IMG/VR virus record: IMGVR_UViG_2778261231_000016
Location: 1 to 19,641 of that record
Strand: one strand, 5' to 3'
Length of the DNA stretch: 19,641 nucleotides
From: a virus
Taxonomy: Duplodnaviria > Heunggongvirae > Uroviricota > Caudoviricetes
How positions within the stretch are numbered: position 1 is the stretch's first letter; each line of letters starts with the position of its first letter. The position numbers and the translations under genes were made by a program. Positions 1-18,545 of the stretch are shown in pieces. Under the pieces are notes generated by a model. The model was not told the origin of the DNA and searched no databases. It was given only the letters and a program-made list of their open reading frames with translations.

Positions 1-3000
1 ATGAACAGGACCAGTCCCTATTATTGTCGCCGCTCAGTACTTTCCTTATTGATATCTGCCTTGATATATGCCCCGCCCGGGATGGCTGCCTTCACTACTA
101 ATGTTATTGGTGTGGTAAACGATGAGACTGTAGATGGCAACCAAAAAGTGGATGAACGAGGTACAACAAATAACACTCATATTATCAACCATGGCCAGCA
201 GAATGTTCATGGCGGGGTATCTAATGGAAGTCTTATTGAATCTGGTGGATATCAAGATATAGGAAGTCATAACAATTTTGTGGGGCAGGCTAATAATACA
301 ACCATTAACGGTGGCAGACAGTCAATTCATGACGGGGGTATTTCCACAGGTACGACAATCGAGAGTGGCAATCAGGACGTTTATAAAGGGGGTATCAGCA
401 ATGGAACGACAATTAAGGGCGGTGCTTCACGCGTAGAGGGAGGGAGTGCGAATGGAATACTCATTGATGGTGGTAGCCAGATAGTAAAAGTTCAAGGGCA
501 TGCTGATGGTACAACGATAAATAAGTCTGGCTCTCAGGACGTAGTACAAGGAAGTCTGGCAACGAACACAACCATAAATGGTGGTCGACAGTATGTTGAA
601 CAGAGCACAGTAGAAACAACAACCATTAAAAATGGCGGTGAGCAAAGAGTATATGAGAGCCGTGCGCTGGACACGACGATTGAAGGCGGAACTCAGTCTC
701 TGAATAGTAAGTCAACGGCAAAAAATACGCATATCTATTCTGGTGGCACGCAAATTGTTGATAACACCAGCACCTCGGATGTTATTGAAGTTTATTCTGG
801 TGGCGTGCTTGATGTTAGTGGTGGTACGGCAACAAATGTTACCCAGCACGATGGTGCAATTTTAAAAACTAACACTAACGGTACGACGGTGAGCGGTACG
901 AATAGTGAAGGTGCATTCTCCATCCACAATCACGTGGCAGACAATGTGTTGCTGGAAAACGGTGGTCATTTAGACATAAACGCATATGGTTCGGCAAACA
1001 AGACGATTATTAAAGATAAAGGAACAATGTCAGTTTTAACCAATGCTAAAGCTGATGCGACCCGAATAGATAATGGCGGGGTTATGGATGTTGCAGGAAA
1101 CGCGACAAATACCATAATTAATGGTGGCACACAGAATATTAATAATTATGGCATAGCCACAGGCACCAATATCAACAGCGGAACGCAAAATATCAAAAGC
1201 GGCGGGAAAGCTGACACAACAATTATATCCTCCGGGAGCCGGCAGGTTGTTGAGAAAGATGGTACGGCAATTGGCAGCAATATTAGCGCCGGAGGCTCGC
1301 TGATTGTCTATACCGGCGGTATTGCACATGGGGTTAACCAGGAGACGGGCAGTGCTTTAGTTGCCAACACGGGTGCAGGGACTGATATCGAAGGATACAA
1401 CAAGCTCTCTCACTTCACTATTACCGGAGGGGAGGCTAATTATGTTGTGCTGGAAAATACCGGCGAACTGACGGTAGTGGCTAAAACCTCGGCGAAAAAT
1501 ACTACCATTGATACTGGCGGTAAGCTGATTGTCCAGAAGGAGGCTAAAACAGATAGCACCAGACTTAATAATGGCGGCGTTCTGGAGGTTCAGGACGGTG
1601 GTGAGGCTAAGCATGTTGAGCAACAATCCGGCGGCGCATTAATTGCTTCCACGACCTCCGGAACACTTATCGAAGGAACCAACAGTTATGGTGATGCTTT
1701 CTACATCAGGAATTCAGAAGCTAAAAATGTAGTGCTGGAAAACGCTGGCTCATTAACAGTCGTCACTGGTTCCCGCGCAGTTGACACGATTATTAATGCC
1801 AACGGCAAAATGGATGTTTATGGAAAAGATGTTGGCACTGTACTCAATAGTGCTGGCACCCAAACAATATATGCCAGTGCCACTTCTGATAAAGCAAATA
1901 TCAAAGGTGGCAAGCAAACGGTATATGGTTTAGCCACTGAAGCAAATATCGAAAGTGGTGAACAAATTGTTGATGGTGGGTCAACAGAGAAAACACACAT
2001 CAATGGTGGCACGCAAACCGTTCAGAATTATGGTAAGGCAATCAATACCGATATCGTCTCTGGCCTACAACAAATTATGGCAAACGGGACAGCGGAAGGT
2101 TCCATTATTAATGGGGGTTCACAGGTAGTTAATGAGGGCGGTCTGGCTGAAAACTCGGTGCTTAATGACGGCGGCACACTCGATGTGCGGGAGAAAGGCA
2201 GCGCAACGGGGATACAGCAGAGTAGCCAGGGCGCTTTGGTTGCAACCACCAGGGCGACGCGGGTCACAGGAACACGCGCGGATGGCGTCGCGTTCAGCAT
2301 CGAGCAGGGTGCGGCGAACAATATCCTGCTGGCAAATGGCGGCGTGTTAACCGTGGAGTCAGACACCTCTTCTGACAAAACACAGGTCAATATGGGCGGA
2401 CGGGAGATCGTCAAAACAAAAGCCACTGCGACAGGCACGACGCTCACCGGCGGTGAACAAATTGTCGAGGGTGTGGCGAATGAGACAACAATTAACGACG
2501 GCGGAATACAAACAGTTTCAGCTAACGGAGAGGCAATAAAAACAAAGATCAATGAAGGCGGTACGCTGACAGTCAACGATAATGGCAAAGCGACAGATAT
2601 CGTCCAGAACAGCGGTGCCGCTCTCCAGACGAGCACGGCTAACGGTATTGAAATCAGCGGTACTCACCAGTACGGTACTTTTTCCATTTCCGGCAATTTA
2701 GCGACCAATATGTTGCTGGAAAATGGCGGTAATTTATTGGTATTAGCAGGTACCGAAGCTCGCGACTCCACGGTTGGCAAGGGGGGGGCAATGCAAAACC
2801 TGGGTCAGGACTCCGCCACAAAGGTTAACTCTGGCGGGCAATATACCCTTGGGCGGTCAAAAGATGAGTTTCAGGCTCTGGCCCGGGCAGAAGATCTCCA
2901 GGTCGCTGGCGGTACGGCAATCGTCTACGCAGGTACGCTGGCGGATGCATCGGTCAGTGGCGCGACAGGAAGCCTGTCGTTAATGACGCCACGGGATAAT

Positions 3001-4581
3001 GTTACGCCAGTTAAACTCGAAGGGGCGGTCCGGATTACCGATAGCGCGACATTGACTCTGGGAAATGGCGTCGATACCACGCTTGCCGACCTGACGGCTG
3101 CCAGCCGGGGCAGTGTCTGGCTTAACAGCAATAATTCCTGTGCAGGTACCAGCAACTGCGAATATAGAGTAAACAGTTTGCTACTCAACGACGGTGATGT
3201 TTATTTGTCAGCACAAACAGCAGCGCCTGCCACAACTAACGGTATCTACAATACGCTGACAACCAATGAACTTTCCGGTAGCGGTAATTTCTACCTGCAT
3301 ACCAACGTTGCAGGCTCCCGGGGCGATCAACTGGTCGTCAACAACAACGCCACTGGTAATTTTAAAATCTTTGTTCAGGATACCGGCGTCAGCCCACAGT
3401 CTGACGACGCGATGACGCTGGTGAAAACAGGGGGAGGGGATGCTTCGTTTACGCTGGGCAATACCGGCGGTTTCGTTGATCTTGGGACCTATGAGTATGT
3501 CCTGAAAAGTGACGGCAACAGCAACTGGAACCTGACCAATGATGTCAAACCCAACCCGGACCCCATCCCAAATCCAAAGCCAGACCCAAAACCCGATCCA
3601 AAGCCAGACCCAAATCCAAAACCAGACCCTACTCCCGATCCAACGCCGACACCCGTTCCGGAGAAACGCATTACGCCTTCTACGGCAGCCGTACTCAATA
3701 TGGCAGCAACATTACCGTTGGTATTTGATGCTGAGCTAAACAGTATTCGCGAGCGGTTGAACATAATGAAAGCGAGTCCACACAACAATAATGTCTGGGG
3801 GGCGACGTATAACACCCGTAATAATGTCACCACCGATGCGGGTGCCGGGTTTGAGCAGACGCTGACCGGAATGACAGTGGGGATCGACAGCCGTAATGAT
3901 ATTCCTGAAGGAATTACCACGCTAGGCGCTTTTATGGGCTATTCCCATTCACATATCGGTTTTGATCGCGGAGGACATGGCAGTGTGGGCAGTTATTCTC
4001 TGGGCGGCTATGCCAGTTGGGAACATGAAAGTGGTTTCTATCTGGACGGTGTCGTGAAGCTGAACCGTTTTAAAAGTAACGTAGCAGGTAAAATGAGCAG
4101 CGGTGGAGCCGCCAATGGCAGTTACCACAGCAACGGGCTGGGCGGTCACATTGAAACCGGGATGCGATTTACCGATGGTAACTGGAACCTGACGCCGTAT
4201 GCATCGTTAACGGGGTTCACCGCTGATAACCCCGAATATCATTTATCCAATGGCATGAAATCGAAATCAGTCGATACCCGCAGTATATATCGTGAACTGG
4301 GCGCAACGCTGAGTTACAACATGCGTCTGGGGAACGGTATGGAAGTTGAGCCGTGGCTGAAGGCGGCTGTGCGCAAAGAATTTGTCGATGATAACCGGGT
4401 GAAAGTGAATAGTGACGGTAATTTCGTCAATTATTTGTCGGGCAGACGTGGAATATACCAGGCAGGTATTAAAGCCTCATTCAGCAGTACGTTAAGCGGG
4501 CATCTTGGGGTGGGGTATAGCCATAGTGCCGGTGTGGAATCCCCGTGGAACGCGGTAGCTGGTGTGAACTGGTCGTTCTGA
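1..4581 (+). CDS. ypjA: AIDA-I/Ag43-type autotransporter adhesin (YpjA-like), 1526 aa
   Basis: Seen: ATG at 1; N-terminal signal-like segment MNRTSPYYCRRSVLSLLISALIYAPPGMAAF; long passenger of degenerate ~19-aa beta-helix repeats (GGxQxVxxGGxAxxTxIxxGG); Pro-rich PNPDPIPNPKPDPKPDP linker; C-terminal beta-barrel translocator ending in aromatic ...GVNWSF. Symbol from memory of the E. coli K-12 smpB-ssrA neighbourhood and the 1526-aa length; not verified by search. Confidence 0.85.
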   Translation: MNRTSPYYCRRSVLSLLISALIYAPPGMAAFTTNVIGVVNDETVDGNQKVDERGTTNNTHIINHGQQNVHGGVSNGSLIESGGYQDIGSHNNFVGQANNTTINGGRQSIHDGGISTGTTIESGNQDVYKGGISNGTTIKGGASRVEGGSANGILIDGGSQIVKVQGHADGTTINKSGSQDVVQGSLATNTTINGGRQYVEQSTVETTTIKNGGEQRVYESRALDTTIEGGTQSLNSKSTAKNTHIYSGGTQIVDNTSTSDVIEVYSGGVLDVSGGTATNVTQHDGAILKTNTNGTTVSGTNSEGAFSIHNHVADNVLLENGGHLDINAYGSANKTIIKDKGTMSVLTNAKADATRIDNGGVMDVAGNATNTIINGGTQNINNYGIATGTNINSGTQNIKSGGKADTTIISSGSRQVVEKDGTAIGSNISAGGSLIVYTGGIAHGVNQETGSALVANTGAGTDIEGYNKLSHFTITGGEANYVVLENTGELTVVAKTSAKNTTIDTGGKLIVQKEAKTDSTRLNNGGVLEVQDGGEAKHVEQQSGGALIASTTSGTLIEGTNSYGDAFYIRNSEAKNVVLENAGSLTVVTGSRAVDTIINANGKMDVYGKDVGTVLNSAGTQTIYASATSDKANIKGGKQTVYGLATEANIESGEQIVDGGSTEKTHINGGTQTVQNYGKAINTDIVSGLQQIMANGTAEGSIINGGSQVVNEGGLAENSVLNDGGTLDVREKGSATGIQQSSQGALVATTRATRVTGTRADGVAFSIEQGAANNILLANGGVLTVESDTSSDKTQVNMGGREIVKTKATATGTTLTGGEQIVEGVANETTINDGGIQTVSANGEAIKTKINEGGTLTVNDNGKATDIVQNSGAALQTSTANGIEISGTHQYGTFSISGNLATNMLLENGGNLLVLAGTEARDSTVGKGGAMQNLGQDSATKVNSGGQYTLGRSKDEFQALARAEDLQVAGGTAIVYAGTLADASVSGATGSLSLMTPRDNVTPVKLEGAVRITDSATLTLGNGVDTTLADLTAASRGSVWLNSNNSCAGTSNCEYRVNSLLLNDGDVYLSAQTAAPATTNGIYNTLTTNELSGSGNFYLHTNVAGSRGDQLVVNNNATGNFKIFVQDTGVSPQSDDAMTLVKTGGGDASFTLGNTGGFVDLGTYEYVLKSDGNSNWNLTNDVKPNPDPIPNPKPDPKPDPKPDPNPKPDPTPDPTPTPVPEKRITPSTAAVLNMAATLPLVFDAELNSIRERLNIMKASPHNNNVWGATYNTRNNVTTDAGAGFEQTLTGMTVGIDSRNDIPEGITTLGAFMGYSHSHIGFDRGGHGSVGSYSLGGYASWEHESGFYLDGVVKLNRFKSNVAGKMSSGGAANGSYHSNGLGGHIETGMRFTDGNWNLTPYASLTGFTADNPEYHLSNGMKSKSVDTRSIYRELGATLSYNMRLGNGMEVEPWLKAAVRKEFVDDNRVKVNSDGNFVNYLSGRRGIYQAGIKASFSSTLSGHLGVGYSHSAGVESPWNAVAGVNWSF
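3551..3660 (+). repeat. Imperfect 24-bp tandem repeats encoding the Pro-rich (P-x-P-K-P-D) linker of the autotransporter
   Basis: Seen: CCAAAGCCAGACCCAAA occurs at 3574-3590 and again at 3598-3614 (24-nt period) within a run of CCA/CCC/CCG-rich codons translating to PNPDPIPNPKPDPKPDPKPDPNPKPDPTPDPTPTP. Confidence 0.75.
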
Positions 4582-4741: not shown

Positions 4742-4785
4742 TGGTGGGCTGGCGGGAGTTGAACCCGCGTCCGAAATTCCTACAT
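4742..4785. repeat. att direct repeat: second copy of the ssrA 3' end (island boundary distal to ssrA)
   Basis: Seen: TGGTGGGCTGGCGGGAGTTGAACCCGCGTCCGAAATTCCTACAT at 4742-4785 matches 18582-18626 (the 3' end of ssrA, minus-strand gene) apart from a single missing A after TGGTGG. Identity stops after CCTACAT on both copies. Confidence 0.9.
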
Positions 4786-4980
4786 ACCATTTTTATTATA
4801 GTAAAAACAGTAGATTATGTTTGAAAACAATGTGTTAGTGTTATTTTGTATTTGCTCGTCTTACGCGTTTTTAATGCTCTGCCGCCAAAGTGCCGCCATT
4901 ACATCAAGCATCTAGAATAAAATTAGTTAATAAATTATAATTAATATGCTAATTGTTCTTGCATTCATAAGTGGGACGTG

Positions 4981-6714
4981 ATGAAAGAAAAAAAATTCGT
5001 TAGTGAGCTTTTCCTTGAAAATGGGCAGTTTATTTTAGTCGGTTTGACAGGTCGAACTGGTTCTGGTTGCACAACAACAGCTAATATTCTTGAAAACGAA
5101 AAAACAGTCTTCCCTGATGTAAGTAAATTACAGGGGTTTTACAAGGGATTGGATGTCCATCGTTATAATATAGTTAAAAAATTCGCAGAAAATCACTGGG
5201 AAAATTTTTACTCAATTAAGGTGAGTGACCTAATCTCAGCGTATCTTCTGATGTTAACAGTTGAGGAAGCTTCTGAATTCATTCTATCATCTAATAAATT
5301 TATCAGTAAAGGGCATTTAGATATTGTATTAACTTTTGGTGTATTCTCAGATAATCTCATTTTGACAAGATTTAAAAATGTAATTGAGAATTTGCTTGAT
5401 CATAATAGTGAATTGAAGCTTGATGAAAAAACGATTAATAAATTTATATCAATTTTGAAGTTAGTTAGAAAATTTACTAAAGAATTCAAAGCTGAACTAA
5501 ATGAGATAAACTCAAATTTATATGTTTCAGCCTATCAGTTAGCAGGTAAGTCAATTAGACGTCGTGGGCGTATTGAAGTCGATTTTGAAGATAAAGAGTT
5601 TATGCCTAAATCTGTTTTTCATTTGCCGGAAACTATTAATAGGGTTATTAAATTAATAAGAAAAAGCAAAAGAGATAACGCATTAATTGTCATAGATGCT
5701 ATTAGAAATCCATATGAGGCAAAATTTTTTAAGGATAGATATTCTGCATTTCATTTAATGTCAATAAATGCCCCAGATGAACATCGAACAAACTATTTGC
5801 GGAAACTACATAAGTTTTCAGAAAAGCAGATAGAGGAAATAGATTCTGTAGAGTCAGGTAAAGGTGATAACTCTTACAAACATCTCACCAATCCAAATGT
5901 AACTAAATGTATTGAACTATCAGATATACACATTTTTAACCCAAAAAATGAATTTGATAATGATAATATTTTAAAAGCACAATTAGCGTGGTACATCGCA
6001 CTGATGAAGCATCCTGGTCTGATAACACCTACTGCAATGGAAAGGGTTATGCAAGTTGCGTATACGGTAAAATTAAACTCTGGCTGTATATCTAGACAGG
6101 TGGGAGCTGTAGTAACTGATGGTGATAATTCAATAAAATCAGTTGGTTGGAATGATGTTGCCAACGGTCAGATTCCTTGCTCTATGAGATCTCTAGATGG
6201 CCTAATGAACGATTTTGATGAAAAAACGTACAGTCATTATGAGAGAAATAATAGTTCTTTCAGAATTAAAGCTAATGAGAAACTCTTAAATTTTAGGGCG
6301 ATAGATAAAACTGGTGATATTTATAGAGGCAGGAACTTATCTTATTGTTTTAAAGATATACATAATGATCTTGATAAAGAGAAAAAAGGTAATCAAGTTC
6401 ATACACGTGCATTACATGCTGAGGAAAACGCATTTTTACAACTTGCAAAATATGGTGGTATTGGCGTTCTTGGGGGGAAGTTGTATACAACTGCCAGTCC
6501 CTGTGAGTTGTGTGCGAAAAAAGCTTATCAGTTAGGTATATCTGAAATTGTATTTATTGATCCCTACCCAGGTATAGCTCAAGACCATATTATTAATATA
6601 GGTAGTAAGCCACCAAAGTTAATACAATTTAGAGGCGCAATTGGGAAGTCATATCACCGACTTTATGAGCAAATTATCCCGATAAAAGATGAGTTAGAAT
6701 ATCTCCTTGAGTAG
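4981..6714 (+). CDS. P-loop nucleotide-kinase-like domain fused to cytidine/dCMP-deaminase domain; AvcD/DcdV-like antiphage nucleotide-depletion enzyme (577 aa from ATG 4981; GTG at 4978 is an alternative start)
   Basis: Seen: P-loop G-L-T-G-R-T-G-S-G-C-T-T at 5041-5076 with Cys where the Walker-A Lys is expected; deaminase zinc motifs H-A-E at 6415-6423 and P-C-E-L-C at 6499-6513; very AT-rich compared with flanking phage genes. Established: this two-domain architecture is characteristic of AvcD/DcdV and the dCTP-deaminase defence proteins. Family assignment is from motif recognition only. Confidence 0.7.
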   Translation: MKEKKFVSELFLENGQFILVGLTGRTGSGCTTTANILENEKTVFPDVSKLQGFYKGLDVHRYNIVKKFAENHWENFYSIKVSDLISAYLLMLTVEEASEFILSSNKFISKGHLDIVLTFGVFSDNLILTRFKNVIENLLDHNSELKLDEKTINKFISILKLVRKFTKEFKAELNEINSNLYVSAYQLAGKSIRRRGRIEVDFEDKEFMPKSVFHLPETINRVIKLIRKSKRDNALIVIDAIRNPYEAKFFKDRYSAFHLMSINAPDEHRTNYLRKLHKFSEKQIEEIDSVESGKGDNSYKHLTNPNVTKCIELSDIHIFNPKNEFDNDNILKAQLAWYIALMKHPGLITPTAMERVMQVAYTVKLNSGCISRQVGAVVTDGDNSIKSVGWNDVANGQIPCSMRSLDGLMNDFDEKTYSHYERNNSSFRIKANEKLLNFRAIDKTGDIYRGRNLSYCFKDIHNDLDKEKKGNQVHTRALHAEENAFLQLAKYGGIGVLGGKLYTTASPCELCAKKAYQLGISEIVFIDPYPGIAQDHIINIGSKPPKLIQFRGAIGKSYHRLYEQIIPIKDELEYLLE

Positions 6715-7095: not shown

Positions 7096-8112
7096 CTATC
7101 TTAAGTTGCATAAAGGGTTTTTAGTTACCGCATCTTCAAGGTGATCGGGCGAAAAGTGGGCGTAAATCATCGTCATTTTTATATCGGCATGGCCCAGAAT
7201 ATCGCGCAGCACCAGTATGTTTCCGCCATTCATCATAAAATGGCTGGCGAATGTATGACGTAGCACGTGAGTGCATTGGCCCTCTGGCAGCTCGATGCCA
7301 GCTCGCTTTACTGCTCGTTCAAAGGCTTTTCTGCACGGGGTGAATAGCTTCCCTCTGTTCTTGGGGAGTTCGTCATACAGATCTTGAGATATCGGCACGG
7401 TGCGGTTTTTCTTACCCTTCGTCTTGGTATAAGTGATGCGGTATTTAGATAACTGATGGCCCTGCAGGTTTTCAGCTTCACTCCAGCGTGCGCCGGTGGC
7501 CAGGCATATTTTTGCAATCAAAAGCAGACTGGGGTTTTGAGAATCAGCGCAGGCATCTAGCAGACGTTTAATTTCTTCCGAGGTCAGGAACGCCAGTTCC
7601 CCCTCAGCGATTTTAAATGTTGGCAGCCCGGCGAGAGGATTTGGTGCTGACCAGTGGCCTAGTTTTTTCAATGTGCCGAAAACCGATGATAGGTTACGTT
7701 GCTCAAGATTCACCGTGCGTGGTTTTACTGGCGACATTAGTGTGCCGTCTTCGTTACGAACGTCACCTTTTAACCGTGCTTCGCGGTATTTCGTAAAGTC
7801 ACCGGCTGTCAGTTCTGAGGCGATGGGGTCGCCTAGACCATTACAGATAATTCTAAGTTTCGCCATGAGGCGCTTGGGGTCTGCGAGTGTCTGACCATAC
7901 AGGGAATACCAAAGCTCAATTAATTCTGATAGGCGTCGCCGATCATCCTTTTCACCCAACCACGGTTTTTTATTCACTTCTTCCATTGTGAAGCTTTCAA
8001 AAGCAATGGCTTCGCCTTTCGTAGCAAATTGCTTACGCACGCGCTTACCATTGCGTCCATTGGGATAGCACTCACACAACCATTTTCCGTTCGGCTGTTT
8101 TCTGATGGTCAT
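7096..8112 (-). CDS. int: P2/186-type tyrosine integrase (338 aa)
   Basis: Seen: N-terminus MTIRKQPNGKWLCECYPNGRNGKRVRKQF resembles the P2 Int N-terminus; C-terminal catalytic region has ...ATGARWSEA..., HVLRHTFASHF and ...IYAHF (tyrosine recombinase R/H-x-x-R/Y signature). Start abuts the cI stop. Confidence 0.95.
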   Translation of the reverse strand: MTIRKQPNGKWLCECYPNGRNGKRVRKQFATKGEAIAFESFTMEEVNKKPWLGEKDDRRRLSELIELWYSLYGQTLADPKRLMAKLRIICNGLGDPIASELTAGDFTKYREARLKGDVRNEDGTLMSPVKPRTVNLEQRNLSSVFGTLKKLGHWSAPNPLAGLPTFKIAEGELAFLTSEEIKRLLDACADSQNPSLLLIAKICLATGARWSEAENLQGHQLSKYRITYTKTKGKKNRTVPISQDLYDELPKNRGKLFTPCRKAFERAVKRAGIELPEGQCTHVLRHTFASHFMMNGGNILVLRDILGHADIKMTMIYAHFSPDHLEDAVTKNPLCNLR

Positions 8113-8113
8113 A

Positions 8114-8746
8114 TCAAAGGCTCTTAATGATTTTCAGTGCGCGGCCTACTACCTCAATGTCATCTAGGCCACATTCAAACGATGAATCATCCTGATGCAC
8201 TACTAATTTGTTTCCCGGAAGTCGAGTCAATTTAACAATGCTTTTTATCCCGTCAATATCGACTAACCACATACCATTTACTGGTGGTGTTTGGTTGCGA
8301 TCTATTAAATAAGAATCACCAGAAGTAGTCACCAGCAGTAGGTTGCTTGAGTCTGAGGGGAGTATGCTGCTATCAATGATTGCTTTTCCAGCATCGACCA
8401 ATAAACCACCGTTGAGAGTCGCCTTGTCAATTTCAGGAGATACTAGTTTAGAAAGAGGTACAACCTTGCTGGAGTTCACGGAATTGATATTTTTTTTAGG
8501 TTCAATGTTTGGACCTGGCTCCCCCTGTCCGGTGGTTAGCCACAGTAAAGAAACTCCTGTTTCCAAGGCGCACTGAATCACCCACTCTGCAGGAAAACTA
8601 TCTCTTAAGTATCTGTTTGCCATGGTGCTTTTTGATGCGCCTAAGTGATCGCAAAGTTGCTGTCTGGACTTGAAATCATAGGCTGCCATTAGTCTATGGA
8701 TAGCCTCTCTTCCCCCTGTATTCTCTCCAACCTTTACCTGTATCAT
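8114..8746 (-). CDS. cI: CI-type immunity repressor (186 CI-like, 210 aa)
   Basis: Seen: position immediately upstream of int on the same strand; HTH-like N-terminal region (KSRQQLCDHLGASKSTMANRYLRD); RBS AGGA 7 nt before ATG at 8746; faces an operator-containing intergenic region. Homology judged by eye. Confidence 0.8.
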   Translation of the reverse strand: MIQVKVGENTGGREAIHRLMAAYDFKSRQQLCDHLGASKSTMANRYLRDSFPAEWVIQCALETGVSLLWLTTGQGEPGPNIEPKKNINSVNSSKVVPLSKLVSPEIDKATLNGGLLVDAGKAIIDSSILPSDSSNLLLVTTSGDSYLIDRNQTPPVNGMWLVDIDGIKSIVKLTRLPGNKLVVHQDDSSFECGLDDIEVVGRALKIIKSL

Positions 8747-8865: not shown

Positions 8866-9108
8866 ATGAGCACTGATATTTCAATTCGTGTACCAAAAGA
8901 GATGGCTACGCCTGCAGAGTTCGCGGAATGGGAAGGTATCTCCCGCGGCTCTGTGTATCAAAAAATTCATCATGGTCAGCTTGCTAAATACATGGTCAAG
9001 AAAGAAAAAAACAAAGGCCGCGTAAGCCTGCGTTATTTAATGTACAAAACCGATCAGGTCCGTGAATCCCTCGGTCATTCCAACTTCCGCGTCATTGTTG
9101 GTAAGTAA
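8866..9108 (+). CDS. Small HTH protein in the apl/cox position (putative excisionase / lytic-switch regulator, 80 aa)
   Basis: Seen: first gene downstream of the rightward promoter and divergent from cI; excisionase-like HTH segment TPAEFAEWEGISRGSVYQKIHHGQL; RBS GGGAGA upstream. Assignment by position and motif only. Confidence 0.45.
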   Translation: MSTDISIRVPKEMATPAEFAEWEGISRGSVYQKIHHGQLAKYMVKKEKNKGRVSLRYLMYKTDQVRESLGHSNFRVIVGK

Positions 9109-9140: not shown

Positions 9141-9485
9141 ATGTTTGATTATAAGATTTCCAAACACCCGCATTTTGATGAAGCCTGTAGAGCTTTTGCA
9201 CTTCGTCACAATATGGCGAAGCTGGCAGAACGTTCAGGAATGAATGTCCAGACTCTGCGAAACAAACTCAACCCAGATCAACCGCATCAGCTCAATGCGC
9301 CAGATATCTGGCTACTTACCGATCTGACGGAAGATTCAACGCTGGTAGACGGTTTTCTGGCACAGATTCACTGCCTGCCATGTGTACCGATTAATGAGGT
9401 GGCAAAAGAGAAACTGCCACATTACGTCATGAGTGCAACCGCAGAGATCGGGCGTGTTGCTGCAGGTGCGGTACCGGTTTTCTAA
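9141..9485 (+). CDS. cII: Phage CII-family regulatory protein, apparently C-terminally truncated (114 aa)
   Basis: Seen: RBS AAGGGGG before ATG; N-terminal region MFDYKISKHPHFDEACRAFALRHNMAKLAERSGMNVQTLRNKLNP matches my recollection of 186-type CII proteins. Those are ~165-170 aa by memory, and here the ORF stops right at the junction with the tail-fibre stub. Confidence 0.65.
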   Translation: MFDYKISKHPHFDEACRAFALRHNMAKLAERSGMNVQTLRNKLNPDQPHQLNAPDIWLLTDLTEDSTLVDGFLAQIHCLPCVPINEVAKEKLPHYVMSATAEIGRVAAGAVPVF

Positions 9486-9871
9486 AATATAACGGAGCGT
9501 CATTCAACAAGGCAATGTATCCCAAACTTGCACAAATTTTCCCGTCAGGAGTATTACTTGATTTGCGCGGCGTATTTATTCGAGGCTGGGATGATGGAAA
9601 AGGGATTGATGCCGGGCGTGCAATACTGACACAGCAGCAGGATGCCCAGCAAAATATCACCGGCATGGTTTCTGATATGACAGTCGGCGTAAATGCTGAC
9701 GGAACAGGTGCATTTAGTATGGTCGATTTAACTACATCAGGCATTTCGGCAGGTGCACTAAATTCTTTTTATCAAAAGCATATTTATCTGGATTCCTCCA
9801 GAGTGGTCAGAACGGCAACTGAAAACCGTCCGGTAAATATCGCATTCAACTACATTGTGAGGGCTGCATAA
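9486..9871 (+). pseudogene. Tail-fibre (H-like) C-terminal remnant, 5'-truncated
   Basis: Seen: frame is open from just after the cII stop; translation contains the tail-fibre collar-like motif ...NGASFNKAMYPKLAQIF...LRGVFIRGWDDGKGIDAGRA...; no N-terminal fibre domain or proper start; stop overlaps the G start (TAATG at 9869-9873). Confidence 0.65.
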
Positions 9872-10458
9872 TGATGAACGCAGATTTAGCCATTTTAGAG
9901 AACGGTATTGCGACAACCGCCGGATGGATAACGATATATAACTATTCGGCGGTTACAGGTGAATATCTTGACAGCAACAGTGAATACATTCCAGAAGGTG
10001 TTGGATTGCCTGCGCTGGCAACAGATATTGAACCGCCGAACAGACCGGACGGTCAGGCTGTTATCTGGCAGGGTTCGTGGATACTGATGGATGACTGGCG
10101 GGGTGAAACGGTTTATTCCATTTTTGATGGTTCTGCCAGTATCGTGGATTACCTCGGGGCAATCGCAGAGGGATATACACAACAGAAACCCGCAACCCGT
10201 TTTGATAAATGGGATGGTAAGCAGTGGGTGACTGATACTGACGCGCGAAATACGGAAGCTGTTGCAGTTTCTACGCAACAGAAAGCTGCATTGCTGGCTG
10301 AAGCCACCGCGACCATAGCACCGCTTCAGGATGCAAAAGACGGAGGTTATATTGATGATGCTGATATTCCGATGTTGATTTCTTGGCAAAAATATCGCTA
10401 CGCGCTGACTAAAGTTAATCCTAAAACTCCTGTTTGGCCCAGCAAACCAAGTGTATAA
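9871..10458 (+). CDS. Tail-fibre assembly protein (P2 G-like, 195 aa)
   Basis: Seen: start overlaps the upstream fibre stop as in P2 H/G; 195-aa product in the expected position before the G-FI accessory slot. Similarity to gpG-type chaperones judged by eye. Confidence 0.8.
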   Translation: MMNADLAILENGIATTAGWITIYNYSAVTGEYLDSNSEYIPEGVGLPALATDIEPPNRPDGQAVIWQGSWILMDDWRGETVYSIFDGSASIVDYLGAIAEGYTQQKPATRFDKWDGKQWVTDTDARNTEAVAVSTQQKAALLAEATATIAPLQDAKDGGYIDDADIPMLISWQKYRYALTKVNPKTPVWPSKPSV

Positions 10459-10470
10459 ATGGTAATATAA

Positions 10471-10505
10471 AAGGCAGTTCACTCTATGATGAACTGCCTT
10501 TTATA
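10471..10505. terminator. Bidirectional stem-loop between convergent G and the 110-aa cargo ORF
   Basis: Seen: AAGGCAGTTCA (10471-10481), 8-nt loop, TGAACTGCCTT (10490-10500), followed by TTTAT on the plus strand and TTATATT on the minus strand. Confidence 0.6.
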
Positions 10506-10524
10506 ACGAGCATCAAAATATAGA

Positions 10525-10857
10525 TTATTTACCAAACAAAGAAACTATGTTGACTGCGACTGTGGTGATATCAGTCGCAGGTTTTAGCCATTTACTGATT
10601 TCATACTTGTCAAGGATTGAAGGGTACTCACTTGCTTCAACTGTTTTCAATTGATGTGCCGCTTGATTAATGTTTTCAAGTGGCGCGCCGGGAATGAAAT
10701 TTTCTTCTAGAAAGCTTTTTTGGCTTTCATATATTGATATCGCCTCGCCATTTCCAGAAAAAGTAGTTTCTTTAAAAACTAACTCTGTACACTCTGGTGC
10801 TCGAACTCCAATCGTATTATTAATAAAAGTACAACCCTCGAAAGTATGCTTACCCAT
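10525..10857 (-). CDS. Hypothetical protein (110 aa), AT-rich cargo in the G-FI (P2 Z/fun-equivalent) slot
   Basis: Seen: ATG at 10855-10857, stop followed by the stem-loop above; opposite orientation to all flanking late genes; markedly lower GC than neighbours; no recognisable motif, no signal peptide or obvious TM segment. Confidence 0.6.
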   Translation of the reverse strand: MGKHTFEGCTFINNTIGVRAPECTELVFKETTFSGNGEAISIYESQKSFLEENFIPGAPLENINQAAHQLKTVEASEYPSILDKYEISKWLKPATDITTVAVNIVSLFGK

Positions 10858-11032
10858 TTTTAGATTTTACCTTGGTTGCGTAGTGAAACCATTAGTTTAC
10901 ATCTTTCACCAGTAGCAATAAAAATGATGGTTAAGAATTGAGACGAGTATCACTGAACTATACATGCTGACCAAAGGAACCTTTCAAAGAATTTAAATGC
11001 GCTGCTAACGATCATTTTTCGTCAATATCAAT

Positions 11033-11050
11033 TGTGCTATTTCCCACACA
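11033..11050 (+). promoter_or_regulatory. Candidate Ogr-dependent late-promoter element (TGT-N12-ACA) upstream of the FI operon
   Basis: Seen: TGTGCTATTTCCCACACA at 11033-11050, ~75 nt upstream of the FI ATG. Established: P2 late promoters carry a TGT-N12-ACA dyad centred near -55 recognised by Ogr. Single motif match, so moderate confidence. Confidence 0.45.
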
Positions 11051-11124
11051 TAGCCCACTACGTGCGCCGCGTGCATATCAACCAGAACATAGGCACACCC
11101 CCTGTAAACCGGAGAGACTGCCTT

Positions 11125-12297
11125 ATGGCTCAGGATTACCACCACGGGGTGCGCGTTGTTGAAATCAACGAGGGCACCCGATCCATTACCACGGTGAGCA
11201 CCGCCATCGTGGGCATGGTCTGCACCGGCGATGATGCTGATGCGTCCATGTTTCCCCTCAATAAGCCGGTCCTGCTGACCGATGTGCTGACTGCCAGCGG
11301 TAAAGCGGGCGAGTCCGGCACGCTGGCCCGTTCGCTGGATGCGATTGCAGACCAGGCTAAACCCGTGACCGTCGTTGTGCGCGTGGCACAGGGCGAAACC
11401 GAAGCGGAAACAACCTCCAACATTATCGGCGGCGTAACTGCTGACGGTAAAAAAACGGGTATGAAAGCGCTGCTTTCGGCGCAGTCGCAGTTGGGCGTCA
11501 AGCCGCGCATTCTCGGCGTGCCGGGGCATGACACGCAAGCGGTTGCCACTGAGCTGCTGAGCGTGGCGCAGAGCCTGCGCGGGTTTGCCTACCTGTCCGC
11601 TTATGGCTGCAAAACGGTAGAAGAAGCGATTGCCTACCGTGACAATTTCAGCCAGCGCGAGGGGATGCTGATCTGGCCTGACTTCATCAACTTTGACACC
11701 GTGCTGAATGCCGACGCGACGGCTTACGCCTCCGCCCGTGCGCTCGGCCTGCGCGCCAAAATTGACGAGCAGACCGGCTGGCACAAAACCCTGTCCAACG
11801 TGGGCGTGAACGGCGTTACCGGCATTTCCGCTGATGTGTTCTGGGATCTGCAGGACCCGGCAACCGATGCGGGACTACTGAACCAGAACGACGTCACCAC
11901 GCTTATCCGCAAAGATGGCTTCCGCTTCTGGGGTTCCCGCTGCCTCAGTGACGATCCTCTGTTTGCCTTTGAGAACTACACCCGCACGGCGCAGGTGCTG
12001 GCTGACACCATCGCAGAAGCGCACATGTGGGCGGTGGATGGCGTACTCAACCCGTCGCTGGCCCGTGACATTATCGAAGGTATTCGGGCCAAGCTGTGCA
12101 GCCTGAAAACACAGGGCTACATCATCGGCGCAGACTGCTGGCTGGATGAGTCGGTGAACGATAAAGACTCCCTGAAAGCCGGGAAACTCACTATCGACTA
12201 CGACTACACGCCGGTGCCGCCGCTTGAAAACCTGATGCTGCGCCAGCGCATCACCGATCAGTACCTGCTGGATTTCTCCAGCCAGGTCAGCGCGTAA
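11125..12297 (+). CDS. Contractile tail sheath protein (P2 FI homologue, 390 aa)
   Basis: Seen: RBS GGAGAG 8 nt upstream; N-terminus [35 protein letters not shown] closely matches P2 FI (MSDYHHGVQVLEINEGTR...). The ORF-track start at 11032 is an upstream in-frame extension I do not believe. Confidence 0.95.
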
Positions 12298-12306
12298 GGG
12301 GACACC

Positions 12307-12822
12307 ATGGCTTTACCACGCAAGTTAAAACACCTGAACCTGTTCAACGACGGGAACAACTGGCAGGGGATCGTTGAGTCTCTGACCCTGCCGAAATTCA
12401 CCCGCAAGTTTGAGAAGTATCGCGGCGGCGGTATGCCGGGCGCGGTGGACGTGGACATGGGGCTGGATGACGGCGCACTGGACACGGAATTTTCAATCGG
12501 CGGCACCGAACTGCTGTTATTTAAGCAGATGGGCAAGGCCACGGTTGACGGAATCCAGCTGCGTTTCACCGGCTCCATTCAGCGTGACGATACCGGCGAA
12601 GTGCAGGCCGTTGAGCTGGTTGTGCGCGGGCGTCATAAAGAAGTGGATTCCGGCGAGTGGAAAACCGGCGAGAGCAGCACCACCAAAGTCAGCAGCACCA
12701 ACAGCTACGCGAAGCTGACCATTAACGGCGAAGTGCTCTATGAGGTCGATCTGGTCAACATGGTTGAAATCGTTGACGGCGTGGACCTGATGGAAGAACA
12801 CCGTAACGCCCTCGGCCTCTGA
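12307..12822 (+). CDS. Tail tube protein (P2 FII homologue, 171 aa)
   Basis: Seen: immediately follows FI with RBS AAGGGG; size and position as P2 FII. Confidence 0.93.
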   Translation: MALPRKLKHLNLFNDGNNWQGIVESLTLPKFTRKFEKYRGGGMPGAVDVDMGLDDGALDTEFSIGGTELLLFKQMGKATVDGIQLRFTGSIQRDDTGEVQAVELVVRGRHKEVDSGEWKTGESSTTKVSSTNSYAKLTINGEVLYEVDLVNMVEIVDGVDLMEEHRNALGL

Positions 12823-12876
12823 TTAACCTTAACGGCGCGGGAAGCCGCGCCAGTATTTCATTAACAGGAAACGAAC

Positions 12877-13179
12877 ATGAGCGACAAGCTGACTGAAAAG
12901 ACCGTAAAACTGGATACCCCCATCATGCGCGGTAAAACTGAAATTACCGAAATTGTGCTGCGCAAGCCGCAGTCCGGCGCACTGCGTGGCACCCGTCTGC
13001 AGGCCATTATGGATATGGACGTGGGCGCGATGATGACTGTGATCCCGCGAATCTCCACTCCGACGCTGACCGCGCAGGAAATGGCAGAGCTGGACCCCGC
13101 CGATCTGACAGCAATGGCTGTAGAGGTGGTGACTTTTTTGTTGCCGAAGTCGGTGCTTGCCGATTTGCCGACAACCTGA
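12877..13179 (+). CDS. Tail assembly chaperone (P2 E homologue, zero-frame product, 100 aa)
   Basis: Seen: RBS AGGAAA; position between the tube and tape-measure genes; contains the slippery heptamer TTTTTTG (13135-13141) near its 3' end. Confidence 0.85.
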   Translation: MSDKLTEKTVKLDTPIMRGKTEITEIVLRKPQSGALRGTRLQAIMDMDVGAMMTVIPRISTPTLTAQEMAELDPADLTAMAVEVVTFLLPKSVLADLPTT

Positions 13180-13313
13180 CGGTTGATGATCTGGTGGCAG
13201 ATATTGCCACCATCTTTCACTGGTCGCCGTCCATCACTGACGTTATGCCGCTGACTGAGGTGCTGGAATGGCGGCATAAGGCAATTCAGCGAAGCGGGGC
13301 CAGCGATGAGTGA
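12877..13313 (+). CDS. E+E' fusion made by programmed -1 frameshift at TTTTTTG (about 13135-13141); E' frame ends at TGA 13311-13313
   Basis: Seen: the -1 frame after the slippery site is open to 13313 and overlaps the tape-measure start (13306). Established: the P2 FETUD operon makes E+E' by -1 frameshifting at this kind of site. The exact shift codon is not determinable by eye. Confidence 0.65.
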
Positions 13314-16083
13314 TAATAACCTGCGTCTGCAGGTGGTTTTGGGGGCGGTTGACAAGTTAACCCGCCCTTTTAAAAATGCCCAGGCTGGCTCAAAAGAGCT
13401 GGCAGCGGCAATCCGGCAGACCCGCGACCAGCTTAAGCAACTGAGCGATGCGGGAGGCCAGTTAAAATCCTTCGACCAGCTATCGCAAAGCGTGCGCCGT
13501 ACAGGTGCAGAGCTGGATCAGACGAGACTGCGCGCGCAGATGATGACGCGCGAAATGTCATCTTTGGAATCCCCAACAAAAAAACAAACTCAGGCGCTTG
13601 AAGCTCAGTGGCGTGCTGTTGCACGTCTTGAGCAAAAGCAGAAACAGGAAACAAACCAGCTATCTGCAGTAAGGGGGGAGCTTTACAGGCTGGGGTTATC
13701 TGCTGGGGGCGGAGCGCGGGAAACCGCCAGAATTACCCGTGAAACTGAGAAGTATAACCAGAAGCTGGCAGAGCAGGAGCGCAGGCTGCGCGAGGTTGGC
13801 GAGCGTCAGCGAAAGCTCAACGCTATCAAAGCCAAGGCTGAAAAGACCCGTGAGTTAAGGAACTCTCTGGCAGGTAATGGTGCAGGGGAGATGGCGGCTG
13901 GGGTAGCTACTGGCATGACGTTATTGGCTCCAGTAAAAGCCTATTCTGAATCTGAAAATGCCGCTAATCAGCTCGCCGGTTCAATGATGGGGCCGGGCGG
14001 AAAGGTCGCACCTGAATTTGAGAAAATTAACCAGCTGGCGGTAGCGCTTGGAGACAGGCTGCCGGGAACCACTGCAGATTTCCAGAACATGATGACAATG
14101 CTGCGTCGTCAGGGGATGTCAGCACAGGTCATTCTTGGCGGGCTGGGGGAATCGGCGGCTTATCTGGGGGTGCAGTTGCAGATGGCTCCCACTGCTGCGG
14201 CTGAGTTTGCCGCAAAATTGCAGGATGCAACACAGACCTCAGAAAAAGACATGATGAGCCTGATGGATCTGATCCAGAAGGGTTTTTATGCCGGTGTTGA
14301 CTCAGGGAATATGCTGCAGGGATTTTCTAATATCAGCAGCGCCATGAGCATTATTAATCAAAAAGGGATTGAAGCAGCTAAAACTTTTGCTCCGTTGCTG
14401 GTGATGGCTGATCAGAGCGGGATGGCTGGTGAGTCTGCAGGTAATGCTTACCGAAAAATTTTCCAGGCAGCGCTGGATTCAAAAAATATTCAGTCAGTCA
14501 ACGACGATCTGAAAGGCACCGGTATCAACTTCAATTTTTCCAATGGTAAAGGTGGATTCGGCGGGCTGGAAAATATGTACGCCCAGCTGGAAAAGCTTAG
14601 TAAGCTCAACGATGAAACCCGGATGGCAACGATTAAGGATCTGTTCGGTAATGATGCGGAAGTCATGAAAGTCCTTAACACCATGATTGAAAAAGGTATT
14701 AATGGATATCGTGAAACTACCGCCAAACTTGAAAATCAGGCTTCACTGCGGGAACGCGTCGATGCGTCCCTGAATACCCTGGGTAATAAATGGGAAGCCG
14801 CTACAGGTTCCTTTACCAATGCTATGGCTAGTATCGGTGAAACAGTTGCCCCAACATTAAAGAAGCTGGCTGACTGGTTGGGTGAACTGGCTTCGCGTCT
14901 GGATGGTTTTGTTAAACGACACCCACAATTGACCTCAGCGCTGTTTAAGCTGGCAGCTGGCTTTGCCATTGTTGCCACCGCCGCTGGGGTTGTTTCACTG
15001 GCGCTGGCGTCCGTGTTAGGGCCGATGGCAGTAGTGCGAATGAGCGCAGGGGTGATGGAGCTAAAATTTTCATCTGCATTTGGTCTTATTGGGAAAGCAA
15101 TCAGTTCTGTTGGCAAGTCAGTTATATGGCTGGGCCGATTGATGTTTGCAAATCCTATACTGGCTGTCATTGGGCTGATCGCCGCTGGTGCTATTTATAT
15201 CTGGCAGAACTGGGACACGCTTGGACCAAAATTCAAGGCAATGTGGGATGCCGTATGTAATGCCACAAGTACGGCATGGGATTGGATTAAAGAGAAGGCC
15301 AGCGCCGCATGGGAGGGGATTAAGTCACTGTTCTTTAATTATACCTTGCCGGGATTAATAGCTAAAAATTGGGATGCAATAAAAACTGGCGTTTCTGAAG
15401 CGTGGGCCAATATCAGACAATCTATTAGTGATAAATGGAATTCGATCCTGGCTGATGTTGCCGCGCTTCCTGCGAAGTTTCAGGACATGGGCAGCGCCAT
15501 TATTGACAGCATTCTCGATGGAATTAATGCCAAATGGGAGACACTCAAAAGCAAGCTTTCCTCAGTCACAGATTATCTGCCTGACTGGATGACCGGAAAT
15601 AATAAAACACAAGACAAAGCACAGGTGCAGGTGGTTGGTGGAGCAGCGGCTGCTGCCGTTCCGTTTGCCGGGATGTATGACAGTGGTGGGATTATTCCGC
15701 GCGGTCAGTTCGGTATTGTTGGAGAGAACGGCCCTGAAATTGTGAACGGCCCCGCAAATGTGACCAGCAGGCGGCGCACTGCCGCGCTGGCTTCCGTCGT
15801 TGCAGGTGTCATGGGCGTAGCGGCAGCGCCTGCAGAGGCTGCTCCACTACATCCTTACAGTCTGCCTACTGTGGCATATAAACAAAGCCAGCCTGCGAAA
15901 TCTGCCAGCGCGCCGCCAGTGATGCACTTTGAAACTCACGCGCCGATCACTATCTATGCTCAGCCAGGGCAGAGTGCACATGATATTGCCCGTGAAGTTG
16001 CCCGACAGCTTGACGAACGCGAGCGCAAGACCAGGGCTAAAGCACGCAGTAATTTCAGTGATCAAGGGGGATATGAATCATGA
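13306..16083 (+). CDS. Tail tape measure protein (P2 T homologue, 925 aa)
   Basis: Seen: long coiled-coil-rich N-terminal half (Q/E/R/K/A-rich), hydrophobic central segments; located between E/E' and U; stop overlaps the U start. Confidence 0.95.
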   Translation: MSDNNLRLQVVLGAVDKLTRPFKNAQAGSKELAAAIRQTRDQLKQLSDAGGQLKSFDQLSQSVRRTGAELDQTRLRAQMMTREMSSLESPTKKQTQALEAQWRAVARLEQKQKQETNQLSAVRGELYRLGLSAGGGARETARITRETEKYNQKLAEQERRLREVGERQRKLNAIKAKAEKTRELRNSLAGNGAGEMAAGVATGMTLLAPVKAYSESENAANQLAGSMMGPGGKVAPEFEKINQLAVALGDRLPGTTADFQNMMTMLRRQGMSAQVILGGLGESAAYLGVQLQMAPTAAAEFAAKLQDATQTSEKDMMSLMDLIQKGFYAGVDSGNMLQGFSNISSAMSIINQKGIEAAKTFAPLLVMADQSGMAGESAGNAYRKIFQAALDSKNIQSVNDDLKGTGINFNFSNGKGGFGGLENMYAQLEKLSKLNDETRMATIKDLFGNDAEVMKVLNTMIEKGINGYRETTAKLENQASLRERVDASLNTLGNKWEAATGSFTNAMASIGETVAPTLKKLADWLGELASRLDGFVKRHPQLTSALFKLAAGFAIVATAAGVVSLALASVLGPMAVVRMSAGVMELKFSSAFGLIGKAISSVGKSVIWLGRLMFANPILAVIGLIAAGAIYIWQNWDTLGPKFKAMWDAVCNATSTAWDWIKEKASAAWEGIKSLFFNYTLPGLIAKNWDAIKTGVSEAWANIRQSISDKWNSILADVAALPAKFQDMGSAIIDSILDGINAKWETLKSKLSSVTDYLPDWMTGNNKTQDKAQVQVVGGAAAAAVPFAGMYDSGGIIPRGQFGIVGENGPEIVNGPANVTSRRRTAALASVVAGVMGVAAAPAEAAPLHPYSLPTVAYKQSQPAKSASAPPVMHFETHAPITIYAQPGQSAHDIAREVARQLDERERKTRAKARSNFSDQGGYES

Positions 16084-16565
16084 TGATGGTGCTGGGGTTA
16101 TATGTCTTTATGCTGCGTACAGTGCCATATCAGGAGCTGCAGTATCAGCGAAGCTGGCGACACGCCGCCAACAGTCGGGTGAACCGGCGACCATCAACGC
16201 AGTTTCTTGGCCCGGGTAATGACTCGCTGACCTTATCTGGCGTACTGCTGCCGGAAGTCACCGGGGGCAGGCTGTCATTGCTCGCGCTGGAGCAAATGGC
16301 AGAGCTGGGCAAAGCATGGCCTCTGATTGAGGGAAGCGGGACCATTTACGGCATGTTTGTGATCGAGAGCCTGAGTCAGACAAAAACAGAGTTTTTTGAA
16401 AGCGGAATGCCTCGCCGTATTGAGTTTACGCTGACCCTGAAAAGGGTTGATGAGTCGCTGTCTGATATGTTCGGCAGTCTCAGCGATCAGCTCAGTAACC
16501 TGCAGGACTCTGCAACGTCTGCGATAGGTAATATTAAAAATACGGTTGGAGGGTTGCTGCAGTGA
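16080..16565 (+). CDS. Tail protein U homologue (161 aa)
   Basis: Seen: N-terminus MMMVLGLYVFMLRTVPYQELQ...LSLLALEQMAELGKAWPLIEGSGTIYGMFVIESL closely resembles P2 gpU; ATGATGATG start overlaps the T stop. Confidence 0.9.
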   Translation: MMMVLGLYVFMLRTVPYQELQYQRSWRHAANSRVNRRPSTQFLGPGNDSLTLSGVLLPEVTGGRLSLLALEQMAELGKAWPLIEGSGTIYGMFVIESLSQTKTEFFESGMPRRIEFTLTLKRVDESLSDMFGSLSDQLSNLQDSATSAIGNIKNTVGGLLQ

Positions 16566-17662: not shown

Positions 17663-17729
17663 ATAAGTTCTTAATATTGATTCTTTGTGTATCATTATTG
17701 AGATTTTAATGGTGACGGAGAATAAAAAA

Positions 17730-17948
17730 ATGATGAATTGCCCAAAGTGTGGACATGCGGCGCACACCCGGAGCAGCTTTCAGGTTACTGATAGCACGAA
17801 GGAGCGTTACTGCCAGTGCCAGAACATTAATTGCGGCAGCACATTTGTCACCCATGAAACGGTTGTACGATTTATCGTTACCCCGACAATAATCAATAAT
17901 GCCCCGCCGCACCCTACGCCGGGTGGTCAAGGGCACATGAATTTTTAA
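17730..17948 (+). CDS. ogr: Ogr late-gene transcriptional activator (C4 zinc finger, 72 aa)
   Basis: Seen: MMNCPKCGHAAHTRSSFQVTDSTKERYCQCQNINC... matches P2 Ogr (MFHCPLCQHAAHARTSRYITDTTKERYHQCQNVNC...) in length and Cys spacing; RBS GGAG 9 nt upstream of ATG 17730. The ORF-track start at 17685 is a TTG extension. Confidence 0.93.
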   Translation: MMNCPKCGHAAHTRSSFQVTDSTKERYCQCQNINCGSTFVTHETVVRFIVTPTIINNAPPHPTPGGQGHMNF

Positions 17949-17954
17949 AACAAG

Positions 17955-17978
17955 AACCTGCTGCGGCAGGTTTTTTAT
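17955..17978. terminator. Bidirectional intrinsic terminator between convergent ogr and the BRCT-domain gene
   Basis: Seen: AACCTGC-tgcg-GCAGGTT followed by TTTTTT (17971-17976) on the plus strand; on the minus strand the hairpin is followed by TTCTTGTTTTAAAAAT. Confidence 0.65.
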
Positions 17979-18457: not shown

Positions 18458-18545
18458 GTGAATCACCTTTATTACACAAACGGTTAAGACGTTATGAACG
18501 GTGGGCAAATTGGCTGCCGCCATTTTGCCGCCACAGCCAAACAAA

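Follow-up and report, generated by a model that had tools for sequence, protein, structure and literature searches.

Prophages are commonly held to decay through deletions that strike at random and are then sorted by selection. One of the closest described cases is the cryptic P2-like prophage of Escherichia coli B/BL21, an integrated remnant that keeps the attachment (att) sites, the integrase gene int, the repressor gene and some late genes; the D'-ogr remnant of E. coli K-12 is a defective P2-like prophage as well. The element analysed here is of the same family as the BL21 prophage. It lies in a stretch of viral DNA of 19,641 nucleotides (nt) from IMG/VR (record IMGVR_UViG_2778261231_000016), referred to in its full length as the window, and it is a remnant of a P2/186-like (Peduoviridae) prophage at the ssrA gene of E. 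coli, in which a shortened cII gene runs directly into the 3' part of the tail-fibre gene H. The two elements differ both in the partner joined to cII—gene A in BL21, H in the window—and in the site of integration, i.e. rcdA/ybjJ versus ssrA. The feature in the window is the scar of one deletion of ~19.5 kb and, by itself, an ordinary object of a known kind. The same cut point in cII has been found in at least 15 different junction types, and the scar was very probably formed by homology-independent, microhomology-guided illegitimate recombination at this recurrent cII hotspot.

Several described systems resemble the cII site in part. Deletion hotspots with one fixed endpoint are said to have been described, by Michel and Ehrlich and by Bierne and colleagues, at the origins of M13 and pC194 and at Ter/Tus. 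Such sites of replication nicking or arrest share with cII an end fixed to the nucleotide, varied and weakly similar partners, deletions as products and very short homology; the cII site differs from them in not being the phage origin, which lies in gene A in an unrelated sequence, and in showing no detectable arrest or nick signal. Aberrant excision of phage lambda, as followed by the Spi- assay, is among the systems of short-homology-dependent illegitimate recombination listed in PMC11372144. It resembles the cII joints in that a prophage is involved, the joints carry a few bases of homology and the hotspots are recurrent. The lambda hotspots, however, have 9-13 bp of homology and join phage to host DNA, whereas at the cII joints the perfect homology amounts to 2-7 bp, the two ends both fall within the prophage and at least 15 partners share a single site. 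The invertases of the Din family (Gin/Cin/Pin) can delete DNA between a true site and quasi-sites sharing the central dinucleotide. The window is comparable in that the parent of its right-hand side belongs to an invertible cassette beside an invertase gene, but the cII site is devoid of the AAACC-NN-GGTTT core and most of the partners (Q, P, T, D, A and ogr) are unrelated to the cassette. No description of a deletion hotspot in cII was found in the searchable literature, and it appears to be undescribed, since a 2026 survey of defective P2-like elements reports no obvious pattern of inactivated or pseudogenised core genes (PMC13586616).

Concerning the left side of the junction, the window retains the first 333 nt of a gene that, where it is annotated in intact form (E. 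coli FDAARGOS_1337, phage Cartapus), has 510 nt and codes for 169 amino acids, the latter being the length of 109 of the 120 best CII homologues in a database of 5.8 billion proteins. The open reading frame (ORF) of the window, with its 114 amino acids, falls short of this and matches the phage CII profile PF06892 only over positions 1-110 of 146. In comparisons with all the intact phages and with 1,233 E. coli records, identity ends at window 9473-9478, and a base-by-base comparison places the last cII base at 9473 (...GCTGCAGGTGCGGTA), from where the intact genes go on with TCTGGCGATG or TCCGGCGATG. Because the DNA from 9473/9474 onwards is that of H read in another frame, the ORF stops at 9485 after three foreign codons (PVF). 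An earlier note on this DNA had described a CII-family ORF ending at 9485 after 114 codons, and had named, as an observation that would speak against a deletion, a lineage with CII proteins of ~114 amino acids and a tail-fibre gene directly after cII. The ORF is as described and cut short; the relatives have a CII of 169 amino acids, followed by fil, several small genes, a methylase gene and the replication gene A, and then by cos, Q, P and the head, lysis and baseplate genes before H is reached. A naturally short CII has thus been ruled out, the relatives being longer and the profile match incomplete.

On the right side, homology starts at 9473/9474. The window from 9473 to 10268 is 95% identical to positions 1004-1799 of a Logan contig (L286), the nearest parent available for this side, in which the counterpart forms the C-terminal part (...ETPPTGFLKYNGASF...) of a tail-fibre variable segment of 230 codons, located in an invertible tail-fibre cassette next to a gene for an invertase of the resolvase family. 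The break lies ~100 codons within the variable segment, away from the boundary of the cassette. The tail-fibre frame is open from 9401 to its stop at 9871 and has its first ATG only at 9515, so that the start-less frame with a collar-type C-terminus, as reported previously, does exist. The 132-residue fragment by itself gave no Pfam hit, but 165 homologues reach E<=1e-20, the best of them 97% identical, and PF07484 is present in almost every one of the 120 listed; this identifies the fragment as a segment of the collar type. Across 5,426 complete genomes of E. coli, no megablast match was obtained for window 9474-11027 (the fibre C-terminus, the assembly gene and the next 570 nt), and the region of the sheath gene, from 11028 on, finds a match of 95%; a degenerate tail-fibre pattern had no match in viral contigs. 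The junction is seamless, with no DNA inserted at 9472-9474. It had been expected near 9474-9490, and a deletion junction does exist there, its exact place being at the lower edge of that range. The alignment to intact genomes, proposed at the same time, has mapped the breakpoints, while the overlap between the parents can only be inferred as 1-2 nt (A or TA), because the nearest parent of the right side is just 95% identical.

The deletion extends from nt 334 of cII to the point in H and has removed fil, the replication genes, cos, the genes for portal, terminase and capsid, the lysis and baseplate genes and the N-terminal part of H. None of the replication, head, lysis or baseplate genes was found within 9486-11124 of the window, which therefore does not hold the full set of an intact inducible prophage; their absence relative to the intact relatives agrees with what the earlier note had stated. 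The prophage measures 13,879 bp between its att repeats, compared with ~33 kb in the intact relatives and 33,368 bp in phage Cartapus, in which the two breakpoints are ~6.2 kb + 13.3 kb, i.e. ~19.5 kb, apart. As the 13.9-kb remnant and this distance add up to ~33.4 kb, the length of the intact phage, the whole shortfall in size is accounted for by a single ~19.5-kb deletion, and the proposal of one large internal deletion is thereby borne out. The outcome is an immune, non-inducible remnant that keeps the att sites, the defence cargo, int, cI, apl and the genes from sheath to ogr.

The cut point of the window is shared by all the junction types compiled in Table 1, which were collected from complete E. 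coli genomes, from IMG/VR and metagenome contigs and from the 90%-identity protein cluster of the truncated CII (CII') of the window; the right-hand partners are Q, P, X, V, H, T, D, ogr and A. The first joints with D, T, P and Q come from complete E. coli genomes, in which they occupy differing loci, that with A from the BL21 lineage and A' from another strain; P' and the second sites in P and Q were supplied by the IMG/VR and metagenome contigs, the second site in D and the L/X joint by re-scoring of the same loci, and V, the third site in P and ogr by the protein cluster.

Table 1 Junction types sharing the cII cut point ...GCAGGTGCGGTA^ (a caret marks a joint, bond or cut here and throughout)
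Partner	Sequence after GGTA	Locus
H	CCGGTTTTC	window
D	ACCGGGGC	L001, L139
T	TCCGGTTTAC	L005, L012
P	CCGGAAGC	L006, L021
Q	TCCAGGTC	L007, L023
A	GCTGAGCC	L009 (BL21-type strain), L097
A'	GCCGGGCA	L010
P, second site	TCGGCTTT	L011
Q, second site	GGCGTTAC	L106
D, second site	TCTGGTG^GGG	L130
L/X	TCTG^ATGAAAG	L180
P'	CGCGGTATCC	L020
V	CCCAGGGC	L292
P, third site	TTCGTCCGG	L294
ogr	CCCATGAAAC	L296, L297

The prophages bearing these junctions reside at several chromosomal sites (ssrA, rcdA/ybjJ, beside csiD and others) and differ from each other in their integrases, repressors and apl genes. In the defective prophage of E. coli B/BL21, represented by Nico21(DE3) (L009, 4727-6172) as well as by L097, cII is joined to the 3' part of A, and this joint, GCGGTA^GCTGAGCC, uses exactly the cII nucleotide of the window joint. 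Two IMG/VR loci, L310 and L312, carry a divergent intact cII, in which the peptide AAGAVSG is specified by other codons (GCCGGTGCTGTGTCGGGT) and the GGTA TCT motif does not occur; this cII lineage offers a natural control, by which an effect of the DNA sequence on the hotspot could be told from one of the protein.

A stepwise origin of the window scar has also to be considered, in which a smaller deletion from the same cII point, reaching e.g. the terminase gene, grew rightwards at a later time, with whatever determines the hotspot located in the retained left side and still active. It would explain why one ssrA lineage, with left arms 99-100% identical and a shared dCTP deaminase, int and cI, contains the nested joints cII::P (L294), cII::H (window) and cII::D (L001). 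Nevertheless, the right flanks of the partners resemble the TC(C/T)GG of intact cII, which a first deletion would already have removed, the size arithmetic agrees with one deletion, and the hotspot is also used by unrelated prophages elsewhere, so that extension in steps is considered unlikely.

It should be pointed out that some of the searches were anchored on the junction sequence itself and are thus biased; three further tests were unbiased. First, an anchor pattern situated 82 nt upstream of the site retrieved 120 IMG/VR loci with three truncations within nt 276-510 of cII, all of them at nt 333-337; one more locus of this set has a 1-nt frameshift and no junction. Second, in the protein cluster, the five truncated proteins whose ORF is complete (114, 116, 117, 119 and 120 amino acids) all diverge right after V111. 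Third, a 120-nt probe centred on the site matched fully in 1,092 complete-genome records and partially in 58, and the three partial matches of an evenly spaced sample all stop at the hotspot. Pattern scans of genome and metagenome contigs returned 135 anchor matches in unrelated context and few true cII hits. That there is no hotspot at all, the deletions starting at random and the position being made to look common by selection or sampling, could be argued from the junction-anchored part of the searches, from counts swollen by BL21-type laboratory strains and from the selection that surely favours remnants keeping cI and losing lethal genes. Such selection at the protein level is unable to fix one phosphodiester bond, however, because the joined tails are read in different frames; and with the unbiased samples at one codon (three of three and five of five), 15 distinct partners, and other deletions of the same remnants (A::D, O::J, P::X and lysB::V) lying at other, non-recurrent positions with 0-3 nt of homology, a random start can hardly be credited.

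The anatomy of the junctions was examined for the 13 partners with a close parental sequence available. In all 13 parents, a TA is aligned with the TA of cII, and the bases behind it tend to follow the TC(C/T)GG of cII, with matches at +2, +3, +4 and +5 in 10, 11, 10 and 7 parents, respectively (background rates 0.29, 0.48, 0.26 and 0.26; p = 5e-4, 8e-3, 2e-4 and 0.03), while from +6 onward and to the left of the TA they are at the level of chance. The parents thus share the TA and an imperfect block of 4-5 nt, and no long homology. Wherever a base within the block is mismatched or missing, the junction has the version of the partner; the sole exception is the second D site, where a mismatch is followed by six perfectly matching bases. 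All events are co-linear deletions with no inversion, including those with the Q and P partners, which are on the opposite coding strand. Reciprocal products, in which a partner would be joined to the 3' part of cII, were not found in a right-anchored sample; this is weak evidence, because the loss of cI would make such products lethal.

A few further breakpoints deserve to be mentioned beside these. A bond in the terminase gene, GGGCTA^CGCGGTATCC, serves a P::X deletion (L007, 6146) as its left end and the cII::P joint of L020 (minus strand) as its right end; it corresponds to Cartapus (L008) 3593^3594, and GCGGTATCC just downstream of it repeats the 9-mer of the cII hotspot. In L006, the right sides of the joints cII::P (4034-4045) and O::J (5320-5331) both continue with CCGGAAGC, the same eight bases. 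About half of the right-hand breakpoints examined have CCGG within the first five retained bases.

From this anatomy we infer the following route of formation. The left crossover would fall within one TA dinucleotide of cII (nt 332-333), a strong hotspot that has been reused independently with at least 15 partners. A lower strand with a 3' end, copied from the partner region, may pair at TATCYGG with the upper strand of cII and be extended leftwards, i.e. by a template switch or a microhomology-primed synthesis, probably during the replication of the phage or prophage. The polarity of such a switch is suggested by the perfect terminal TA, the imperfect pairing behind it, the retention of the bases of the partner and the fact that nothing is shared ahead, and the template switch or microhomology-primed synthesis is the most likely sub-mechanism in terms of fit. 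In a rolling circle, a switch of this kind could directly yield a circle with attP, int and cI and without the lytic genes, and this circle might, speculatively, integrate later.

Several points weigh against this reading. The template switch would have to span 3-28 kb, which is an unusually long range, and the model leaves unexplained why this acceptor site in cII is chosen. Neither a promoter nor a terminator was found at the cII site, its folding into a hairpin or cruciform was no better than that of shuffled sequences on both strands (z = +0.9 and +0.2), and a conserved DNA or RNA element was not seen, the diversity of nt 301-360 being like that of the rest of the 3' two-thirds of the gene. 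The microhomology assigned to the window junction is drawn from the other events. The apparent polarity may in part be a survival bias, reciprocal and leftward products being hidden by the lethal loss of cI. Finally, a sequence-specific enzyme could just as well have left the perfect TA with its conserved flank as its footprint.

That last view, according to which the hotspot is the site of an enzyme that cleaves and rejoins sequences similar to TA-N-C-Y-G-G, is possible although doubtful. Such an enzyme might be a nickase or HUH protein, a relaxase, a topoisomerase or gyrase, or an unrecognised recombinase of the host, a plasmid or a phage. The invariant TA in 13 of 13 partners, the conservation of +2 to +5 with its sharp end at +6 and the second coincident breakpoint, used in the terminase gene once as left and once as right end, are points in its favour. 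The nic consensus of MOBP relaxases, YATCCTG^Y, seems to bear a likeness to the cII motif; a relaxase cutting after TATCYGG would, on the other hand, retain the block of cII, and the junctions retain that of the partner. The site has no dyad symmetry around it, no inversions have been seen, and it is unlike the att cores as well as the crossover sites of Gin and Cin. It is also unlike the origin nick of gpA in P2/186, GCGCCTCG^GAGTCC; the nick sites GCGCCTCG^GAGTCCTGTCAATAAC lie in gene A, their Cartapus equivalent being at ~31268, and the cII endpoint does not fall on a rolling-circle nick. Moreover, the sole sequence common to all the remnants is cII' itself, int, cI and apl varying by locus.

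The remaining alternative starts from a break within the prophage, from which resection by RecBCD would halt at a Chi-like octamer in cII, GCAGGTGC, matching GCTGGTGG in 6 of 8 positions, and leave a fixed 3' end of the upper strand after GGTA, GGTAT or GGTATC, to be joined by terminal microhomology. RecBCD cuts 4-6 nt from Chi, and the octamer, which has the strand and orientation required, places the crossover at this same distance of 4-6 nt on its 3' side, its end being 4 nt ahead of the crossover. The partners sharing TATC or GGTA are somewhat frequent, 6 of the 15 partner sites lie just past cos, in Q and P, and the intact phage is devoid of true Chi (GCTGGTGG), none being present on either strand of the whole Cartapus genome (L008, 33.4 kb). 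The octamer, however, has two mismatches to Chi and such a variant may be inactive; a fixed TA end does not account for the match to cII that persists from +2 to +5 beyond mismatched bases; and the gene A deletions exclude cos. A halt of RecBCD is, for these reasons, regarded as quite improbable.

Some other candidate causes have been tried and rejected. The action of Int at a secondary att site does not apply, as the att core GCTGGCGGGAGTTGAACCCGCGTCCGAAATTCCTACAT and the attP core of 186 are unrelated to GGTGCGGTATCTGG and the integrases differ; deletion by the invertase is contradicted by a break off the cassette boundary and by most of the partners being outside the cassette; no crossover site of either kind is present at the cII joint. 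For XerCD, the predicted cut would be 2 nt off and the XerD arm is lacking (the GGTGCG of cII also occurs in the XerC arm of dif). An adjacent deletion mediated by an insertion sequence (IS) was dismissed, with no IS at any junction, and a restriction-type cut at ^CCGG is contradicted by the partner base kept between TA and CCGG.

One family of widespread E. coli prophages repeatedly loses its lytic genes from a single nucleotide position, the BL21 prophage being an example. Tentatively, and with less confidence than the reading as microhomology-guided illegitimate recombination, the TA at nt 332-333 of the 186-type cII genes might mark an unrecognised sequence-specific DNA transaction of P2-like phages or their hosts—it could be a programmed or enzyme-made nick, a strand-transfer site or a replication-switch site—that repeatedly turns phages, infecting or resident, into immune, non-lytic remnants keeping their defence cargo. 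If a specific break, nick or template switch operates there, it would offer a testable route to grounded prophages that still provide immunity and anti-phage cargo, and a simple marker, by polymerase chain reaction or sequence, for deletion events of this type; a sequence-specific transaction would define a molecular route of prophage domestication. In annotations of this locus, two entries, the short "CII family protein" and the "tail fibre protein" that has no start, merit the label of pseudogene fragments.

The features of the window are given in Table 2; along 19,485 nt, its sequence agrees without a mismatch with part of a draft contig of E. coli (GCA_002545375.1, NNZM01000039.1). The arrangement is that of an integrated P2/186-like prophage, with the repeats flanking the element and one copy within ssrA, and the P2/186-type order is kept: int-cI leftwards, apl/cox-cII rightwards, and FI, FII, E, T, U, D and ogr adjoining attR.

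Table 2 Features of the window in order of position (late-gene calls and Pfam families were read on an identical contig, L289, at an offset of 860)
Feature	Position	Strand	Remarks
ypjA/ehaD autotransporter gene	1-4581	+	
attL, left prophage boundary; 38-nt direct repeat = ssrA 3' end	4748-4785		100% identical to 18589-18626; homology to Cartapus att region
Cargo gene, retained; "anti-phage dCTP deaminase" in near-identical relatives (RefSeq)	4978-6714	+	PF00383
P2/186-type integrase, intact	7096-8112	-	PF24624, PF00589; annotation of relatives
CI immunity repressor, intact	8114-8746	-	PF07022, PF16452; annotation of relatives
Apl/Cox-like excisionase-repressor, 80 amino acids, intact	8866-9108	+	ORF list; annotation of relatives
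Truncated cII, 114 codons	9141-9485	+	9141-9473 = cII codons 1-111; 9474-9485 = PVF + stop from tail-fibre DNA
Deletion junction ...GCAGGTGCGGTA^CCGGTTTTCTAAAATA...	9472-9474		crossover in or just after TA (9472-9473)
Tail-fibre gene H, 3' fragment; last 132 codons of collar-type variable receptor-binding segment	9474-9871	+	promoter-proximal part and own start codon lacking
Tail-fibre assembly gene tfa/G, intact	9871-10458	+	PF02413
Late genes FI sheath, FII tube, E, E', T tape measure, U, D, ogr; all full length	11125-17948	+	
attR, second copy of the 38-nt repeat, inside ssrA 3' end	18589-18626		
ssrA (transfer-messenger RNA)	18582-18944	-	
smpB	after ssrA	-	

Both ends of the remnant carry cargo. 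The gene beside attL codes for a deaminase-domain protein of 578 amino acids (4978-6714), and an ORF adjoining attR (17975-18544) has a weak, sub-threshold match to a BRCT domain; in related remnants, the corresponding places are occupied by retrons, a SIR2 protein and a DUF4041 protein. A minus-strand ORF of 110 codons (10525-10857), with a weak sub-threshold match to a beta-helix (PF13229, E = 4e-5), sits in the place that is taken, in the relatives, by the alternative segment of the fibre together with a second assembly gene and the invertase. Possibly this ORF is what is left of a different receptor-binding protein; no invertase gene remains in the window. Lastly, in E. coli ET734 (NZ_CP100922.1), the best match to the sheath gene of the window is located ~10 kb upstream of a near-identical cII on the same strand. 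One normal prophage would not have its genes in this order, and the presence of P2-like elements in tandem or in rearranged form is suggested for that strain.

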